From positions 22,455 to 86,454 of the forward strand of contig CAAGEZ010000017.1 in assembly GCA_900768995.1 (NCBI GenBank): a stretch of DNA of 64,000 nt. The letters run 5' to 3'. The DNA comes from Oscillospiraceae bacterium (lineage in GTDB: Bacteria; Bacillota; Clostridia; Oscillospirales; Ruminococcaceae). Below are positions 10,660 to 42,116 of this stretch, in pieces. The position numbers and the translations under genes are program-made. Positions within the stretch are counted from its first letter, which is position 1. Every line of letters starts with the position of its first letter. Below the pieces are notes generated by a model. It ran no database searches and had not been told where the DNA came from. It saw only the letters and a list, made by a program, of their open reading frames with translations.

Positions 10660-11803
10660 TCACAGTGCCCATACCCGCCGCCATAAGTATAACGGTGGAT
10701 ATCACGAACATCACCGCAAAGCAGGCAAGCACCGCAGCGGTCAGGGAAAGCAGAGAGGAAGTGCCCTTGAAAAACACTCCAAGCTCCTTTACCCCAAACA
10801 TTTCCGCAGCAGCCTCTCCCGCAGACAGGGCAAGATACAGGCATAGGGTCTCAAGTACGGGCGGCAGCAGCATTATGCACAGTGCGATTATGCCGAAGGC
10901 CCCCGCCGCACCTCTCAGAAGTCCAAGCCCCGACCGCATAGTTGAATATGCGTCCGCAACGGCACTGCCCACCACGGGTACAAAATTTGATACCACAAAT
11001 TTTGCTGCCTTGACCCCGAGAGTGTCCGCCGATGCACCGACTATGGACTGTATGGAAAGCAGACCCGTAAACACGGTCATTGCAAAGCCGAGGAAAAGGG
11101 ATACCGCTTTTTTCAGAAGTCCTGTAACGGAGGAAAGGCTGAACGAGGGATTGATAGCGTCAATTATGCTCATAGCCGTGCAGACCGATATGACAGGCAT
11201 AAGTATATCGGAAGAAAGCCTTACCGCCGCCTCCGCAATAAGCAGGACTATGGCATTGTAGCTCACCGATGAAGCCGCATTGCCCGCCGCCGCAGATATC
11301 CCCGCAAATATTGGAACATAGCAGAGCATAAATTCACTGCCGCTTCTAAGCGTTTCGGCACAGCTTTTTATACAGCTGTCCACGGACGGTATCGTAAGTG
11401 TTACTGCCGCCATTACCGCCACCGCTCTGTAAAGCTCAGTGCCGCCCTTGTTCCCGAGTGAATCCGCAGCCGCACCCGAAGCAGCTCCAAGTATCACCAC
11501 CGAAAGTATCAGCCCAAGGAGCTTTATAGGTGCTGCGGCGCTGTGCTTTAGCTTTTCGGTCATATATGATATGACCGTTTTGGGTGTGAGAGCTGTAATG
11601 CTGTCAGGGTCATCGGGAGAGATGCCGTTATCTTCAAGAAAATCCGCCGCATCATACGGCAGTGCTTCGGAAATGCTGTCAACGCCGTATTCCTCTGCAA
11701 GCTCACCCACAGAGATATCCTCTGCCGAAACACTTTGAGATATGAACACCGCCGTGAGCAGTGAGATGATAAACGCCGTTAAAATTATTAAACACCGTCT
11801 CAT
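10652..11803 (-). CDS. spoIIIAE: Stage III sporulation protein AE
   Basis: A large polytopic membrane protein with a signal peptide. I chose the start at MRRCLIIL, which has a GAGGAAAG ribosome-binding site; the longest ORF reaches 11869 and would overlap spoIIIAD. Confidence 0.8.
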   Translation of the reverse strand: MRRCLIILTAFIISLLTAVFISQSVSAEDISVGELAEEYGVDSISEALPYDAADFLEDNGISPDDPDSITALTPKTVISYMTEKLKHSAAAPIKLLGLILSVVILGAASGAAADSLGNKGGTELYRAVAVMAAVTLTIPSVDSCIKSCAETLRSGSEFMLCYVPIFAGISAAAGNAASSVSYNAIVLLIAEAAVRLSSDILMPVISVCTAMSIIDAINPSFSLSSVTGLLKKAVSLFLGFAMTVFTGLLSIQSIVGASADTLGVKAAKFVVSNFVPVVGSAVADAYSTMRSGLGLLRGAAGAFGIIALCIMLLPPVLETLCLYLALSAGEAAAEMFGVKELGVFFKGTSSLLSLTAAVLACFAVMFVISTVILMAAGMGTVNA

Positions 11804-24754: not shown

Positions 24755-24783
24755 TTTGCAATTTTTTTTATTTTATTGTATAA
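24755..24783 (+). promoter_or_regulatory. Putative sigma-A-type promoter TTGCAA, 16 nt, TATAAT, upstream of mtaB.
   Basis: Hexamers read directly from the sequence. The ribosome-binding site is GGAGGA at about 24840. Confidence 0.45.
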
Positions 24784-24852
24784 TAGCATATAGCCCTAAA
24801 AAACTAAAAGGTTTTCAGTATGCATCTTACACAAAAATTCTTGGAGGATTTT

Positions 24853-26214
24853 ATGTATATTTACTTTATAACCTTCGGCTGCAAGGTCAACACATACGAA
24901 ACGGCTTGTATGACTGCGGCATTTGAAGCGGAAGGTTTTACGCCTACTCTTGAAAAAAATCTTGCGGATATATTCGTCATAAACTCCTGCACAGTGACAT
25001 CTGAAAGCGACAGCAAGCTGAGACAGACACTCAGAGGTCTGCGGAGAGATCACCCCGATTCGGTCATAGTGCTGACGGGCTGCTATCCTCAGGCATTCCC
25101 AGATGAAGCGGCTGCGGAGGAATGTGCGGATATAGTCACGGGAACCAAGAACCGAAGCAATATTGCAAGGCTTGTGAAAAATTATCTTGATGACAGGGAA
25201 AGAGTCTGTTCTGTTGCTCCATATTCGTCAGGAGACGGCTTTGAGGTTATGTCTGCGGACAATATTGAGGGTCACACCCGTGCATTTATGAAAATTCAGG
25301 ACGGCTGCAATGCTTTCTGCACCTACTGCATTATCCCCTATGCCCGTGGACGTATCCGTTCAAAGCCTGTCGAAGATATTGTTTCTGAGGCAAGAAAGCT
25401 TGCGGAGAATGGTTACAGGGAGATAGTCCTTGTGGGGATAAATCTTGCGTTTTATGGCGCTGAGTTCGGGAAAGACCTTGCAGATGCGGCGGAGGCTGTA
25501 AACAGCGTTGACGGCATTGACAGAATACGTCTCGGGTCTCTTGAACCCGAAAAAATGACCAATGAAATGCTTATGCGGCTTGCGGCACTGCCTAAATTCT
25601 GCCCTTCTTTCCATTTGTCCCTCCAGAGCGGCTGCAATAGGACGCTCAAAGCGATGAACCGAAGGTACACCGCCGAGGAATACGCCGAACTCGTTGACAG
25701 GATAAGACACATTTTCCCCGACTGCGGCATTACCACTGACGTAATGGCGGGTTTTCCGGGTGAGACAGACACTGACCACAAGGAATCAGTGGAATTTATA
25801 AAGAAGATAGGCTTTTCAGATATCCACGTGTTCCCATATTCACGTAGAAAGGGTACGAAAGCCGACCTTATGGACGAACAAGTCCAGAACGAGATAAAAA
25901 AGCAGAGAGCCAAGGAGCTTGCCGAAGCAGGAGCTGTTTGTCGGCAGAAATTTCTGCAAAGCCTTGTGGGAAAAGAGTTTCCCGTTCTTTTTGAGAGAGA
26001 AAAATCCGACGGGATCCACCACGGATATGCTCCAAATTACACTCATATAAAAATTTTAACAAAAAATTCAGAAAAAAGTTTGCGTAAAATGATTTTTTAT
26101 GTTAAAATAGATAAGATAGGAGAAAATTGCTGTTTTGGTGAAATTTTGCCCGAACGCAGTATTCTCGACACCAACATTCGACACCAACATATAATAAAGG
26201 GGAGTATCTTACTT
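24853..26214 (+). CDS. mtaB: tRNA threonylcarbamoyladenosine methylthiotransferase MtaB (MiaB-like radical SAM). It has no in-frame stop and reads straight into purL.
   Basis: FGCKVNTYE (UPF0004 domain), the radical-SAM cluster CNAFCTYC, and a TRAM-like C-terminus ending YVKIDKIGENCCFGEIL. I chose the start at MYIYFITFGCKVN. The frame continues without a stop to 29922. Confidence 0.8.
26166..26191 (+). repeat. 13-bp perfect tandem duplication (CGACACCAACATT followed by CGACACCAACATa) at the mtaB/purL junction.
   Basis: Read directly from the sequence. Removing one copy restores an in-frame TAA TAA at the end of mtaB. Confidence 0.9.
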
Positions 26215-29200
26215 ATGCCAGTTTACCGAATTTATGTTGAAAAAAAACCTGAATTTGCCTCTTCGGCAAAGACCCTTCTTTCAGATGTGAAAACAGCCCT
26301 CAGACTGGATTCGCTCCGCTCGCTGCGTGTCATCAACCGCTACGATGCAGAGAATATCTCGGAAGAGAATTTCAACTATGCAGCAGGAAACGTTTTTTCC
26401 GAGCCTGCCGTTGATGTGACCTACAGAACTCTTCCCAAGCTTGCTAACGATGAAAGAGTTTTTGCGGTGGAGTATCTCCCCGGTCAGTTCGATCAGAGAG
26501 CCGATTCCTGCGAGCAGTGTATCCAGATCCTTACTCAGGGCGAGCGCTGCAAGGTCCGCAATGCACGTGTTTACATCACTCAGGGCACTATTTCCGATGA
26601 TGAATTTGAAGCTCTCAAAAAGTACATCATCAACCCTGTTGAAAGCCGTGAAGCATCTCTCGACGAGGTGGACACTCTTGCTGTAAAGTATGATATCCCC
26701 GAGACTGTCGAAACTCTCACAGGCTTTATAACTATGGACGATCTCGGTCTTGCCGATTTTGTTACAAAGTACAGACTTGCTATGGATTTCGATGACCTCA
26801 AGTTCTGCCAGAGCTATTTCCGTGACACCGAAAAGCGTGACCCCACTATCACTGAAATTCGTATGATAGATACATACTGGTCCGACCACTGCCGTCATAC
26901 CACATTCTCAACTATCATCGACAATGCAAATATTGACGCTGATTACATCAGAAAGACATACAACGAATATATCGACGCAAGAAAAGAGCTTGGCAGAGAA
27001 AACAAGCCCATTACCTTAATGGACATTGCCACAATTGCCGCTAAGAAGCTCAAAAAAGAAGGCATTCTCAAGGACCTTGACGAGTCTGAGGAGATAAATG
27101 CCTGCTCCGTAAAGATAAAGGTCGATGTTGACGGCGAGCTTCAGGACTGGCTCCTTATGTTCAAGAACGAGACCCATAACCACCCCACTGAGATTGAACC
27201 TTTCGGCGGTGCTGCAACCTGTCTCGGCGGTGCTATCAGAGACCCTCTCTCGGGTCGTTCCTATGTTTATCAGGCAATGCGTGTAACAGGTGCGTCCAAT
27301 CCCCTTGTGCCTGTTGAAGACACTATCCACGGCAAGCTTCCTCAGAGAAAGATCACAGTCGGCGCAGCAAACGGCTACAGCTCCTACGGAAACCAGATCG
27401 GTCTTGCCACAGGTCACGTTGCAGAGGTTTATCACCCCGGGTATGTGGCTAAGAGACTGGAGATAGGTGCAGTTGTAGGCGCAGCTCCTATGGAGAATGT
27501 TGTAAGAGAAGTTCCCGAGCCCGGTGACGTTATCATTCTCCTCGGCGGACGCACAGGACGTGACGGCTGCGGCGGCGCAACAGGCTCCTCCAAGTCCCAC
27601 ACAGAGCAGTCCCTTGAAAGCTGCGGTGCAGAGGTTCAGAAGGGTAATCCTCCCGAGGAAAGAAAGCTCCAGAGGCTTTTCCGTGACCCCGAGGTCACTC
27701 ATATGATCAAGCGCTGCAACGACTTCGGCGCAGGCGGCGTTTCCGTTGCTATCAGTGAGCTTACAGACGGTCTTGTTATCGACCTTAATGCCGTTCCCAA
27801 GAAGTATGACGGTCTTGACGGAACAGAGCTTGCTATTTCCGAGAGCCAGGAAAGAATGGCTGTTGTTATCAGAAAGTCTGATATGAAGAAGTTTATGGCT
27901 GCGGCTGCCAAGGAAAACCTTGAAGCAACAAAGGTCGCAGACGTTATGGAAGAACCCCGTCTTAAGATGAAGTGGAACGGCAAGGTCATTGTTGATCTTT
28001 CAAGAGAGTTCCTTAACTCCAACGGTGCAGAAAAGCACACAAATGTACAGGTTCCCCTTCCTATAACCGTTCAGCCCAAGTCTTACACAGACTGCCCCGA
28101 CAGCTGGTACACTCTTATGACAAACCTCAACGTATGCTCTCAAAAGGGTCTTGTTGAGCGTTTCGACTCCACTATCGGCGCTGGCACAGTTCTTATGCCC
28201 TACGGCGGCAAATATCAGCTCACTCCCACTCAGGCAATGGCTGCAAAGATACCAGTTCTTAAGGGTCAGACCACTACCTGCTCCCTTATGGGCTGGGGCT
28301 ACAATCCTTATGTAAGCGACAAGAGCCCTTACCACGGCGCTATGGCAGCTGTAATTGAGTCCGTTTCCAAGGTCATCGCAGCAGGCGGAAGCTACAAGAA
28401 CTGCTGGCTCACATTCCAGGAATATTTCGAGAGAACCCAGAACAATCCCACAAGATGGGGCAAGCCTTTTGCGGCTCTTCTCGGCGCATACAAGGCTCAG
28501 ATTGAGCTTGGCTGCGGAGCTATCGGCGGCAAGGATTCGATGTCGGGTACATTTGAAAATATCGACGTTCCCGCAACTCTCGTTTCCTTTGCAGTTTCTA
28601 CCGCAAGCAGCAAGAAAATAATCTCTCCCGAATTTAAAAAGGCAGGCAACAAGGTTATTTACATCACTCCCGATTATGATGAAAACGGTCTGCCCAAGTG
28701 GGACAGCGTAAGAAGCGTATTTGAGCGTGTTGAGGCACTCATTTCCGAGGGCAAGGCACTTTCCGTATGGTCTGTCGGTTTTGGCGGCGTTGCTGAGGCT
28801 GTTGCAAAGATGTCTCTCGGAAACAGAATAGGTTTCAAGTTTGATAAGAAGCTTGACAAGGATACCCTTTTCTATTCAAGATACGGTTCATTCGTTATCG
28901 AACTTGACGGCGATCCATTTACAGCAGAAAAGGTTATCGGTACAACAACCGATTCCTACACTATCGACTGCAAGGATTATGTTGTCGATATGGCTGATCT
29001 TCAGAAGTCGTGGGAGGACAAACTCGAACCTGTATTCCCCTGCAATATAAAGACTGAGAGCAAGCCTGCCAAGATATACACATACACCGCACACGACACT
29101 GTTCAGCACGCTTCCGCATTTGCAAAGCCAAAGGTTCTTATCCCTGTATTCCCCGGCACAAACTGCGAATACGATACAGCACGTGTATTTGAAAGAGCAG

Positions 29201-29922
29201 GAGCTGTTCCTGAGGTCGTTGTTATCAAGAACCTTTCCGCATCTGCCCTTGAGGACAGTGTTAAGTATGTTCAGAAGGCAATCAAGAAATCTCAGATAAT
29301 TATGATCCCCGGCGGCTTCTCAGGCGGAGATGAGCCTGACGGTTCAGGTAAATTCATCACTGCATTCTTCCGTAATCCCTCTATCAAGGAAGCTGTTACT
29401 GACCTTCTTGAGAACAGAGACGGACTTATGCTCGGTATATGCAACGGTTTCCAGGCTCTTATCAAGCTGGGACTTGTTCCTTTTGGAAAAATCGTTGATA
29501 TGACCGATGATTCTCCTACACTCACATTCAACACCATTGCAAGACACCAGTCTATGATGGTTTCCACAAGAATCGCTTCCAACAAGTCTCCTTGGCTTGC
29601 AGGCTGCGAGGTTGGCGATATCCACAAGATCGCTATTTCACACGGTGAAGGACGCTTTATTGCATCTCCCGAACTTATCAAGCAGCTTGCTGACAACGGT
29701 CAGATCGCTACTCAGTATGTTGACCTTGACGGTTCTCCCTCTATGGATATCCGCTTCAACCCCAATTCTTCCTTCGATGCAATTGAGGGTATCACATCTC
29801 CCGACGGACGTGTTCTTGGAAAGATGGGTCACAGTGAGCGTATCGGCACTGACATCTGCAAGAATGTTCCCGGCAACAAGGATCAGAAAATATTTGAAAG
29901 CGGCGTAGCTTACTTCAAGTAA
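26215..29922 (+). CDS. purL: Phosphoribosylformylglycinamidine synthase, single-chain large form (fused PurS-like, PurL and PurQ-like domains)
   Basis: Its own ribosome-binding site (AAAGGGGAG) lies 9 nt before ATG 26215. FGAM-synthase motifs are present, with a C-terminal glutamine-amidotransferase domain (GICNGFQAL) and GHSERI near the end. 1235 aa. Confidence 0.9.
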   Translation: MPVYRIYVEKKPEFASSAKTLLSDVKTALRLDSLRSLRVINRYDAENISEENFNYAAGNVFSEPAVDVTYRTLPKLANDERVFAVEYLPGQFDQRADSCEQCIQILTQGERCKVRNARVYITQGTISDDEFEALKKYIINPVESREASLDEVDTLAVKYDIPETVETLTGFITMDDLGLADFVTKYRLAMDFDDLKFCQSYFRDTEKRDPTITEIRMIDTYWSDHCRHTTFSTIIDNANIDADYIRKTYNEYIDARKELGRENKPITLMDIATIAAKKLKKEGILKDLDESEEINACSVKIKVDVDGELQDWLLMFKNETHNHPTEIEPFGGAATCLGGAIRDPLSGRSYVYQAMRVTGASNPLVPVEDTIHGKLPQRKITVGAANGYSSYGNQIGLATGHVAEVYHPGYVAKRLEIGAVVGAAPMENVVREVPEPGDVIILLGGRTGRDGCGGATGSSKSHTEQSLESCGAEVQKGNPPEERKLQRLFRDPEVTHMIKRCNDFGAGGVSVAISELTDGLVIDLNAVPKKYDGLDGTELAISESQERMAVVIRKSDMKKFMAAAAKENLEATKVADVMEEPRLKMKWNGKVIVDLSREFLNSNGAEKHTNVQVPLPITVQPKSYTDCPDSWYTLMTNLNVCSQKGLVERFDSTIGAGTVLMPYGGKYQLTPTQAMAAKIPVLKGQTTTCSLMGWGYNPYVSDKSPYHGAMAAVIESVSKVIAAGGSYKNCWLTFQEYFERTQNNPTRWGKPFAALLGAYKAQIELGCGAIGGKDSMSGTFENIDVPATLVSFAVSTASSKKIISPEFKKAGNKVIYITPDYDENGLPKWDSVRSVFERVEALISEGKALSVWSVGFGGVAEAVAKMSLGNRIGFKFDKKLDKDTLFYSRYGSFVIELDGDPFTAEKVIGTTTDSYTIDCKDYVVDMADLQKSWEDKLEPVFPCNIKTESKPAKIYTYTAHDTVQHASAFAKPKVLIPVFPGTNCEYDTARVFERAGAVPEVVVIKNLSASALEDSVKYVQKAIKKSQIIMIPGGFSGGDEPDGSGKFITAFFRNPSIKEAVTDLLENRDGLMLGICNGFQALIKLGLVPFGKIVDMTDDSPTLTFNTIARHQSMMVSTRIASNKSPWLAGCEVGDIHKIAISHGEGRFIASPELIKQLADNGQIATQYVDLDGSPSMDIRFNPNSSFDAIEGITSPDGRVLGKMGHSERIGTDICKNVPGNKDQKIFESGVAYFK

Positions 29923-29945
29923 TACTGACTTTATAGCAAAACAAC

Positions 29946-29990
29946 AGCGAGCCTTTCTTCATATTGAGGAAAGGCTCGCTGTGTTTATAT
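29946..29990. terminator. Bidirectional rho-independent terminator shared by purL and cotJC.
   Basis: A perfect 12-bp stem (AGCGAGCCTTTC / GAAAGGCTCGCT) with an 11-nt loop, flanked by U-rich sequence on both strands. Confidence 0.75.
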
Positions 29991-30000
29991 TATGCTGACA

Positions 30001-30597
30001 TTATTTGTCAAACTCGGGATTGAATGCATAGAAATTCTTTGAATTAAGATTATCCTGAGTTATGCGGAGAGCTTCGCCAAAACGCTGAAAATGCACAATT
30101 TCCCTTTGTCTGAGGAACTTTATCGGGTCACGGACATCGGGATCATCGGCAAACCTGAGGATATTGTCATAAGTCGTTCGAGCTTTCTGCTCTGCCGCCA
30201 TATCTTCGTGAAGGTCTGTGATAACATCGCCCTTCGACTGGAAATATGCTGCTGTAAACGGCACTCCTGCTGCGGACTGAGGATAGATCCCAAGAGTATG
30301 GGCTACATAATACGAATCCATTCCGCCCGCCTTTATCTGCTCGGGAGTAAGTCCTTTGGTGAGCTGGTATACGATTGCTGAGATCATCTCAACGTGTGCA
30401 AGTTCTTCCGTACCAATATCTGTCATAATCCCCTGCACCTGAGCATAAGGTGCGGTGTATCTCTGACTGAGATATCTCTGAGATGCAGCAAGCTCACCGT
30501 CAGCACCGCCGAGCTGTTCAACTATCATCTTAGCAAGCAGCGGATTTTTATTCTTAATGTTTACGGGATACTGCAAGCGCTTTTCATAAACCCACAT
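30001..30597 (-). CDS. cotJC: Spore coat protein CotJC (manganese-catalase family)
   Basis: Dimetal-catalase motifs (EELAHVEMI and later glutamates), in the third position of a cotJ operon. Confidence 0.9.
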   Translation of the reverse strand: MWVYEKRLQYPVNIKNKNPLLAKMIVEQLGGADGELAASQRYLSQRYTAPYAQVQGIMTDIGTEELAHVEMISAIVYQLTKGLTPEQIKAGGMDSYYVAHTLGIYPQSAAGVPFTAAYFQSKGDVITDLHEDMAAEQKARTTYDNILRFADDPDVRDPIKFLRQREIVHFQRFGEALRITQDNLNSKNFYAFNPEFDK

Positions 30598-30599
30598 AA

Positions 30600-30857
30600 T
30601 CAGTTAGCCTCCTTTTCCCAGGGCCAGGGACCCTTTACCCAGTCGAAAATATTTTCACAGTCCGACTGGAGAGGAGAAATGGGTCCAAAAAGATTTGCAT
30701 ATGCTGCTGCTGTCCGTTCACGGAGCTCCTTGTATTTCCTGAACGCCCTCAGACCGTTGGGACAGGTAGGGTGTGTGTCAAGGTAAAGCTGAAGCTCGTA
30801 TAAATAAAAATCATACATCTGCAATGCATAAAGCAGCTGCCTTTTCTTATTTTCCAT
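30600..30857 (-). CDS. cotJB: Spore coat protein CotJB
   Basis: LYELQLYLDTHP plus the conserved FGP. Confidence 0.85.
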   Translation of the reverse strand: MENKKRQLLYALQMYDFYLYELQLYLDTHPTCPNGLRAFRKYKELRERTAAAYANLFGPISPLQSDCENIFDWVKGPWPWEKEAN

Positions 30858-31062
30858 ATGTCTGCACCCCTTCCCTGCCTAAAAAAGGAAGATCAAGACT
30901 TGGGAAAATAGTACCCTTGGCAAGAGCTGTATTTTCAGCATAAGTCTCATCCCAACTCTGATACGGCACATAAGCCATAGCAAGAGGCATATTTTCGGGT
31001 AACCGTCTTTTAGGAACCGTCAGTTCCTCAGCAGAGCATTTTGAATATGAGTTATTGTTCAT
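30847..31062 (-). CDS. cotJA: Spore coat-associated protein CotJA
   Basis: AMAYVPYQSWDETY is the CotJA signature. Confidence 0.8.
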   Translation of the reverse strand: MNNNSYSKCSAEELTVPKRRLPENMPLAMAYVPYQSWDETYAENTALAKGTIFPSLDLPFLGREGVQTYGK

Positions 31063-31196
31063 AGCCTGCTCCTTTCAAAAAATTATGAGCATATAAGCTC
31101 ATTAATATCATATTCAGAAAGCTCCAGAATGTCACTGTGTCCATAAATGAAAAGTCGCCGCAGATATTGCTCCGCAGCGGCTATGTATGATTTACT

Positions 31197-40100: not shown

Positions 40101-42116
40101 TCAGAATATGAGCATTCCGATATTATACACCGCAAATGCAGCCACCCAAGCGGCAGCGCACTGAATAAGAACAAAGAAAAGTGCCGCAAAAGATGAGTTC
40201 ATCTCACGTCTTACAGCCGCCACCGCCGCAACGCAGGGGGTGTAAAGAAGTGAGAAAACAAGGAAGCTTACCGCTGTCATAGGTGTGAACATTCCCTGAA
40301 GTATTGCAGGAAGCAGGTCGGAAGAGCCTGCGCCTGAGAGCACGGACAATGTTGATACCACCGCTTCCTTTGCGGTAAAGCCTGTGATAAGTGCCGTGGA
40401 AATTCTCCAGTCGTTGAAGCCGAGGGGAGCAAATATTGGTGCAATTATCTTTCCAAGTGCCGCAAGGAGGCTATGCGAGCTGTCTGTGACCACATTGAGC
40501 CTTGAATCAAAGGACTGCAGGAACCAGATTATAACCGAGGCGGTGAAAATTACGGTAAATGCCTTTGTGAGGAAGTCTTTCGCCTTGTCCCACATAAGCA
40601 GCACCACGCTTTTGGGTGACGGCAGGCGGTAATTGGGTAGCTCCATAACAAAAGGAACGGGGTTGCCTTTAAATCTTGTCTTATTTAAAATTATGCCGTA
40701 AATTATGCCGCATATCATTCCGAAAAAGTAGAGACAGACCATTACAAGAGCACTGTGATTCGGGAAAAATGCCATTGCGAAAACCGAATATATTGGCAGC
40801 TTTGCACTGCACGACATAAACGGGGTGAGGAAAACGGTCATTTTTCTGTCACGTTCGGAGGAAAGTGTTCTTGTCGCCATAATTGCAGGAACGGAGCAGC
40901 CGAAGCCGATTATGAGCGGCACAAATGAACGTCCCGAAAGACCTATCTTACGGAGCAGGCTGTCCATTACAAAAGCCACTCTCGCCATATATCCGCTGTC
41001 CTCCAGCATCGACAGGAAGAAAAACAGTGTAACTATTGTAGGCAGGAAGCTGAGAACGCTGCCGACTCCCGCAAATATTCCGTCAATTATAAGACTGTGG
41101 ATAACAGGATTCAAGCCGTAAACGGTAAGTGCATTATCGGCAGCGACAGTCACTGCGGCAATGCCCGAAGTGAGCAGGTCGCTTAAGAATTTTCCGATAA
41201 CTCCGAAGGTGAGCCAGAAAACCGCCATCATAATAAGTATGAACATCGGTATGGCGAGATATCTGTTGGTAAGCACGCTGTCTATCTTCACACTGCGGAT
41301 ATGCTCCTTGCTCTCACGGCATTTCACAACAGCATGGTCGCACACATTTTCGATGAAAGTGTATCTCATATCGGCAATAGCGGCGTTCCTGTCCATTCCT
41401 ATTTCCGTCTCCATTTCGGTAACGCTGTGCTCTATCATTTCAAGCTCGTTCTCATTAAGCTCAAGCTTTTCTTTGATTGCAGGGTCAGCTTCGATAAGTT
41501 TTGTGGCGCAAAATCTTCTGCCAAGCCCCGCTTTATCGGCGTGATCCTCGATTATGTGGCAGACTGCGTGAATACATCTGTGAACTGCGCCGCTGCAATA
41601 ATCTATTTTTCCTGGCGGGATACGCTTTTTTGCGGTGTTCACGGCAGTCTCGATAAGCTCCTCAACGCCGTCATTCTTAGCAGCCGATATTGGCACAACA
41701 GGCACACCAAGCCTTTCGGAAAGCTCCGTTATGTTTATAGTGCCGCCGTTGTTTCTTACCTCGTCCATCATATTGAGGGCAAGAACCATAGGTATTTTCA
41801 GCTCACTGAGCTGTAATGTAAGATACAGGCTTCGCTCAATATTTGTGGCATCAACAATGTTTATTATCCCGTCAGGCTTTTCGTTTATGAGGAAATCACG
41901 GGTAACTATCTCCTCAATGGTGTAGGGACGAATGGAATAAATTCCCGGGAGGTCAACAACCGTGCAATCCTTATATTCCTTTACAACGCCGCTTTTCTGC
42001 TCAACTGTGACACCGGGAAAATTTCCCACGTGCTGATTTGAGCCTGTGAGCTGATTAAAAAGCGTTGTCTTTCCGCAGTTCTGATTTCCTGCAAGTGCAA
42101 AAACCATTTGCAGCAT
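40101..42116 (-). CDS. feoB: Ferrous iron transporter FeoB
   Basis: An N-terminal G-domain (ALAGNQNCGKTTLFN), a gate domain, and a polytopic membrane domain. 671 aa. Confidence 0.95.
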   Translation of the reverse strand: MLQMVFALAGNQNCGKTTLFNQLTGSNQHVGNFPGVTVEQKSGVVKEYKDCTVVDLPGIYSIRPYTIEEIVTRDFLINEKPDGIINIVDATNIERSLYLTLQLSELKIPMVLALNMMDEVRNNGGTINITELSERLGVPVVPISAAKNDGVEELIETAVNTAKKRIPPGKIDYCSGAVHRCIHAVCHIIEDHADKAGLGRRFCATKLIEADPAIKEKLELNENELEMIEHSVTEMETEIGMDRNAAIADMRYTFIENVCDHAVVKCRESKEHIRSVKIDSVLTNRYLAIPMFILIMMAVFWLTFGVIGKFLSDLLTSGIAAVTVAADNALTVYGLNPVIHSLIIDGIFAGVGSVLSFLPTIVTLFFFLSMLEDSGYMARVAFVMDSLLRKIGLSGRSFVPLIIGFGCSVPAIMATRTLSSERDRKMTVFLTPFMSCSAKLPIYSVFAMAFFPNHSALVMVCLYFFGMICGIIYGIILNKTRFKGNPVPFVMELPNYRLPSPKSVVLLMWDKAKDFLTKAFTVIFTASVIIWFLQSFDSRLNVVTDSSHSLLAALGKIIAPIFAPLGFNDWRISTALITGFTAKEAVVSTLSVLSGAGSSDLLPAILQGMFTPMTAVSFLVFSLLYTPCVAAVAAVRREMNSSFAALFFVLIQCAAAWVAAFAVYNIGMLIF

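Follow-up and report, generated by a model that had tools for sequence, protein, structure and literature searches.

The 64,000-nucleotide stretch of Oscillospiraceae DNA analysed here (the window; GenBank assembly GCA_900768995.1, contig CAAGEZ010000017.1, a gut-metagenome assembly of a Ruminococcus-like bacterium) encodes on its forward strand a radical-SAM tRNA methylthiotransferase, MtaB, and a single-chain phosphoribosylformylglycinamidine (FGAM) synthase, PurL, which are joined in one open reading frame (ORF) across a perfect 13-bp tandem duplication. An earlier sequence-only reading of the window had described a single very long ORF at 24820-29922, and this ORF does exist: it translates to 1700 aa and is the longest in the window, the next reaching 849 aa. 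The reading frame is open from 24820, but the ATG at 24853 is preceded by GGAGGA and the same start (MYIYFITFGC) occurs in all homologues, so the true start is almost certainly ATG 24853 and the gene an ORF of 1689 codons (24853-29922); the gene on record is likewise a 1689-aa fusion starting at 24853. Its predicted product has the layout MtaB(442)-RHQHIIKGSILL-PurL(1235) and a mass of about 186 kDa. The junction and its two flanking genes comprise the following features, in which L-numbers denote homologous loci from other assemblies.

24853-26178, forward strand: mtaB part, 442 codons ending in ILDTNI; extent as in free-standing conspecific MtaB, with TIGR01579 and Pfam UPF0004 and Radical_SAM matches
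26165-26177, forward strand: first copy of the 13-bp unit TCGACACCAACAT, read in the sequence and called by Tandem Repeats Finder at 100% identity
26178-26190, forward strand: second copy of the unit; alignments show one of the two copies to be absent from 8/8 single-copy relatives
26179-26214, forward strand: 12 new linker codons, translated as RHQHIIKGSILL, derived from the frame-shifted end of mtaB and what had been the intergenic spacer
26192-26197, forward strand: TAATAA, the ancestral mtaB double stop, now out of frame; an in-frame stop in L005-L010 and L012
26199-26204, forward strand: GGGGAG, the purL Shine-Dalgarno sequence, unaltered at 10 nt ahead of the ATG and kept in all relatives including the sister species L003
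26215-29922, forward strand: purL, single-chain FGAM synthase, 1235 codons, complete; TIGR01857 match and 99% identity to free-standing P0001 (1235 aa)

Profile comparisons bear out the assignment of the two halves to MtaB and PurL and indicate that each is a complete, above-threshold member of its family. The MtaB half scored 433.8 bits against the equivalog model TIGR01579 (cut-off 357.05), and the MiaB and RimO models scored under their own cut-offs. PF00919 (UPF0004) and PF04055 (radical-SAM) matched ORF residues 14-108 and 158-327, and the translation contains the cysteine motifs FGCKVN, NSCTVT, TGC and CNAFCTYC, corresponding to the three-Cys UPF0004 set and the radical-SAM CxxxCxxC. Because the TIGR00089 match runs to ORF residue 436 (profile position 425 of 429), ahead of the duplication at residue ~449, the whole conserved part of MtaB is retained; the Pfam TRAM model gave no reported match on the ORF, though the C-terminal region of TIGR00089 is covered. 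The PurL half begins at ORF Met466 (ATG 26215) and scored 1901.1 bits against TIGR01857 (cut-off 1057), its residues 5-1234 aligning to model positions 2-1239 of 1239, and its linker, AIRS_C and GATase_5 domains (PF18072, PF02769, PF13507) were all found. Neither the 1700-aa ORF nor the 1235-aa PurL had an identical record in look-ups.

At the junction (26161-26217) the window reads ATT CTC GAC ACC AAC ATT CGA CAC CAA CAT ATA ATA AAG GGG AGT ATC TTA CTT ATG, and Tandem Repeats Finder reported a sole array there, at 26165-26190, with a period of 13, 2.0 copies, 100% matches and the unit TCGACACCAACAT. The repeat is confined to these 26 bp, with no extension on either side, and BLAST against the conspecific locus L012 returned the same 13-nt insertion in the window, at position ~26165. 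The perfect tandem had been recognized in the sequence-only reading but placed one base too far downstream (26166-26178 and 26179-26191), a register in which the second copy would be CGACACCAACATA and end in A rather than T. Deleting one copy in silico yields ...AAC ATA TAA TAA AGG GGA G, that is, the predicted double stop followed by the purL Shine-Dalgarno sequence, with an Ile codon that is ATA and not ATT as had been given; the junction peptide proposed earlier matches the ORF translation (ILDTNIRHQHIIKGSILLMPVYR). No other perfect tandem with a period of at least 13 occurs in the window, and 100 third-order Markov simulations of the window produced none. The two alleles can be told apart by short strings, CAACATTCGACACC / TCGACACCAACATTCGACACCAACATATAA for the duplication junction and CTCGACACCAACATATAATAA / CAACATATAATAA for the single copy. 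Elsewhere in the window, at 40688-40710, a near-perfect 12-bp tandem (AAATTATGCCGT, 1.9 copies, 100% over 23 nt) lies in frame inside a reverse-strand ORF (40101-42116, 671 aa) and may be another recent short duplication.

We compared the junction with orthologous mtaB-purL junctions, as the earlier reading had proposed. The window matches ENA scaffold BRIT16-1_SAMN02333999_METAG-scaffold_37 (146 kb, from a metagenome) at 11,070/11,070 bases, and the single-copy comparison set comprises eight loci from other assemblies (L005, L006, L007, L008, L009, L010, L011 and L012), seven of which (L005-L010 and L012) share 95-97% DNA identity with the window and are conspecific, L011 being more divergent. 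All eight relatives carry the 13-mer once. Seven of them read ...GAC ACC AAC ATA TAA TAA AGGGGAG... and have a separate mtaB (442 aa, ILDTNI end) and purL (1235 aa) 20 nt apart, which is the ordinary two-gene arrangement expected for the locus without its duplication. The remaining relative, L011 (GCA_034101045.1, 2470-2485), reads ATA CAA TAA; its first stop is CAA and its 443-aa MtaB ends at the second TAA, which shows the mtaB double stop serving as a back-up. The sister species (L003 and L004, 81% DNA identity) also have two genes, with an mtaB that ends earlier. Consistent lengths were found among the cluster members listed with MtaB, 8 of 10 being 442 aa and the other two a 445-aa variant and the fusion. 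A scan of a genome collection with an invariant 22-mer beside the junction matched only the species representative ('uncultured Ruminococcus sp.'), in single copy, and a scan of JGI metagenomes with such a 22-mer found nothing. In the GTDB species representative (L009, CAMBJF010000169.1), positions 11-44 are a Nextera adapter (GTCTCGTGGGCTCGGAGATGTGTATAAGAGACAG) abutting the 3' part of mtaB, a contamination of the contig end ~130 nt upstream of the junction. Given the single copy in relatives, parsimony makes one copy the ancestral state, and because the two copies in the window are 100% identical the duplication is recent. The rule that single-copy relatives would make the duplication an assembly error was thus too strong: what they indicate is a derived duplication that appears private to one lineage or sample.

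We found no sign that the fusion is conserved. Among the best 120 homologues no MtaB-PurL fusion is present, the longest having <=1247 aa, and each of the closest PurL homologues (99% to 74% identity) is a free-standing protein 1233-1247 aa long. When a junction-spanning query of 600 aa (300 aa from each half) was compared with 1.84 billion representative proteins, each of the best 150 matched the MtaB half only or the PurL half only; a true fusion would match both halves and rank first. Three long proteins were considered as fusions and rejected: P0230 (1443 aa) is a PurL with inserts, and P0136 and P0231 (639 aa) are MtaB-like with an internal insertion. Literature searches found no MtaB-PurL fusion. 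On these comparisons, the ORF does not belong to a conserved bifunctional MtaB-PurL family and is no novel type of enzyme.

A second tandem duplication occurs at the same site in another strain. The locus L002, on a SPAdes-style contig of sample ERZ15610012, encodes a PurL 99% identical to that of the window and carries at L002:2961-2978 (~window 26170-26190) a different perfect 9-bp tandem, CCAACATAT x2, that overlaps the same bases. This duplication is in frame, such that MtaB has 445 aa and ends in ILDTNISNI (+SNI) before TAATAA. Two distinct short tandem duplications therefore fall within ~20 bp among about a dozen strains, the insertions observed being 13 bp in the window and, from a different unit, 9 bp in L002. 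Together with the loss of the first stop in L011, the L002 duplication indicates that the mtaB tail is naturally variable; this non-conserved tail may be either mutation-prone (a hotspot) or simply tolerant of indels. Further along L002 (6787-8725), collinearity with the window ends at window position 30405, inside a gene for a cotJC-like Mn-catalase (window 30001-30597, reverse strand); the L002 version of this gene has 128 aa against 198, and a gene for a 501-aa large serine recombinase (Resolvase/Recombinase/Zn_ribbon_recom) adjoins the break, the contig stopping before the other side of the element. The arrangement resembles the insertion of a prophage-like 'intervening element' into a sporulation gene, of the sort known for sigK, spsM and gerE.

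Consensus scans added two features on the outer sides of the gene pair.

24756-24784, forward strand: promoter-like TTGCAA-17-TATAAT upstream of mtaB, 10/12 matches to consensus
29944-29982, forward strand: terminator-like hairpin with an 18-bp stem, after purL

The same scan found no promoter-like site near the mtaB-purL junction, and the two genes look like one transcription unit, a putative two-gene operon. Rfam had no match in the window and thus no purine riboswitch or other leader RNA at the junction. Changed accessibility of the purL ribosome-binding site was considered as an effect of the duplication and dropped, RNA folding with and without the duplication having given no significant or altered structure (z-scores 0.48 and -1.18). 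A cotJA-cotJB-cotJC (Mn-catalase) operon in the opposite orientation follows immediately after purL (window 30001-31100, reverse strand) and indicates a spore-forming Clostridia lineage.

We consider it probable that the ORF is a real allele, a recent and private stop-loss fusion within the mtaB-purL operon. A replication or repair error would have duplicated 13 bp in tandem at the very 3' end of mtaB; since 13 is 12+1, ribosomes translating mtaB would then pass TAATAA in the +1 frame, cross 12 stop-free codons and enter purL in frame. MtaB would be present only as a fusion with PurL, while free PurL would still be made by internal initiation at its own Shine-Dalgarno sequence and ATG. Free PurL is expected because this start region is untouched and the local mRNA structure is weak and unchanged, and both enzyme moieties are complete because the duplication lies beyond the conserved MtaB domains. 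In the ancestral sequence the purL frame is already open for 20 codons upstream of the purL ATG, so the genes would be fused by a +1 indel anywhere in the last ~14 mtaB codons, and the open frame can be explained without selection. Three points of this account are inferences: support for the duplication in the sequencing reads, production of both the fusion and free PurL, and a small effect on fitness.

The pattern of indels argues for real variation. Over 21.3 kb aligned to L012 at 96.4% identity there are 13 indels, 12 of them intergenic, and the 13-bp duplication is the sole coding one; it sits in the last codons of mtaB, past the family profiles, which is the pattern of selection acting on real variation rather than of random error. 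Besides the duplication, a single multi-base indel separates the window from L012 (12 nt, intergenic); it was checked and is not a tandem duplication. A chimeric join of strains at the seam was rejected, as binned identity to nine references shows no switch across the junction. The larger k-mers used by de Bruijn assemblers exceed the 26 bp of the repeat, whose collapse or expansion would not be a typical graph error. Several observations weigh on the other side. The 13-bp duplication lacks microhomology at its flanks, which gives simple slipped-strand mispairing no obvious advantage as its origin. Only 2-3 contigs (NCBI and ENA), perhaps all from sample SAMN02333999, are on record with the exact fusion protein. 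The 'scaffold_N' naming of the record resembles that of IDBA-UD and suggests a pipeline with documented local assembly errors, particularly under IDBA-UD; one worked case had 13 in a 1.13-Mb genome, or ~1 per 90 kb (PMC7111523).

The strongest competing explanation is a local assembly or scaffolding artefact, which we regard as unlikely but serious enough to be kept in view. The organism would then be single-copy, and a 13-bp duplicated overlap would have been added during assembly, for example where contig ends met at a strain-variable site; the 1689-aa database protein would not be real. The other assemblies of the species are all single-copy, and the fusion is known, as far as is visible, from the assembly of one sample. 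Strain-polymorphic sites can break assembly graphs, and the metagenome-assembled genome that represents the species has its adapter-bearing contig end close to the junction. Short-read metagenome assemblers are also documented to duplicate sequence at joins and to give wrong numbers of repeats (PMC7111523). Yet the window has 0 N, the closest strain is unchanged at the seam, and the absence of any other coding indel over 21 kb indicates that this assembly is not generally indel-prone. A random error would fall mid-gene in ~85-90% of cases, whereas the duplication sits at one of few places where a frameshift spares both enzymes, and L002, a SPAdes assembly from another sample, has a different duplication there, which points to real variability.

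Far less probable is a selected bifunctional MtaB-PurL enzyme, or a reversible, contingency-like switch toggling MtaB between a free and a PurL-tethered state: about a dozen strains do include two independent tandem duplications that overlap within ~20 bp, no domain is lost and the reading frame is preserved in the fusion, and perfect tandem duplications can in principle revert through loss of one copy, but the searches of the best 120 homologues and of the best 150 among 1.84 billion representatives yielded no such fusion, the repeat has two copies only, unlike the tracts at known phase-variable sites, and the 9-bp variant keeps the frame and alters just three residues. Nor does the open frame call for selection, since a +1 indel anywhere in the last ~14 codons would produce the fusion. 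With an ancestral state that contains no repeat and a derived state of only two copies, the site does not look like a phase-variable (contingency) locus. It is very doubtful that the mtaB 3' end is a true duplication hotspot whose 13-bp allele acts as a reversible switch tethering all cellular MtaB to PurL; such a switch would imply altered 2-methylthio-N6-threonylcarbamoyladenosine (ms2t6A) tRNA modification and/or purine flux in a subpopulation.

As biology, the stop-loss fusion that we favour matters little, being one more case in which a tiny indel where a gene ends welds two operon neighbours together with neither damaged, which is raw material for fusion proteins. Its practical importance is larger. 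The 90%-identity cluster of PurL P0001 has 247 members that include both 442-aa MtaB and 1235-aa PurL proteins, apparently because P0121, the 1689-aa fusion, chains MtaB and PurL into one cluster, so that one doubtful gene model merges two unrelated families in public protein sets. The fusion record could also seed false 'Rosetta-stone' links between tRNA methylthiolation and purine synthesis, and it merits flagging until there is read support.

Known systems resemble this locus in different respects. The local assembly errors described by Chen et al. (2020, PMC7111523) would be a parallel if the duplication were a small unsupported insertion that carries a wrong gene model from an otherwise correct scaffold into databases; the window is without Ns, a chimeric seam or any other coding indel. 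The PurL half is a full-length member of TIGR01857, from which the ORF differs in its extra N-terminal radical-SAM methylthiotransferase module. Single-chain FGAM synthase is itself an ancient fusion of PurS-, PurL- and PurQ-like modules (TIGR01857), and we know of no PurL architecture with an N-terminal methylthiotransferase module of this kind. Short tandem-duplication frameshifts arise by replication slippage or template switching, the classic example being the lacI CTGG hotspot. As in such duplications, the copies in the window stand perfectly head to tail, are of recent origin and have a length that is no multiple of three, whereas the ancestral mtaB end has no pre-existing repeat and lacks microhomology where the duplication borders lie. 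Microhomology is likewise absent from the 9-bp duplication in L002. Stop-loss fusions through a frameshifting indel, a first step toward 'Rosetta-stone' proteins, likewise join same-strand operon neighbours (20 nt apart in this case) by stop bypass with both partners complete, although Rosetta-stone fusions are defined by conservation in some lineages and MtaB-PurL is seen in a single assembly. The MtaB-PurL ORF is, by these comparisons, a new instance of a well-known event, the stop-loss fusion of operon neighbours through a short tandem duplication.

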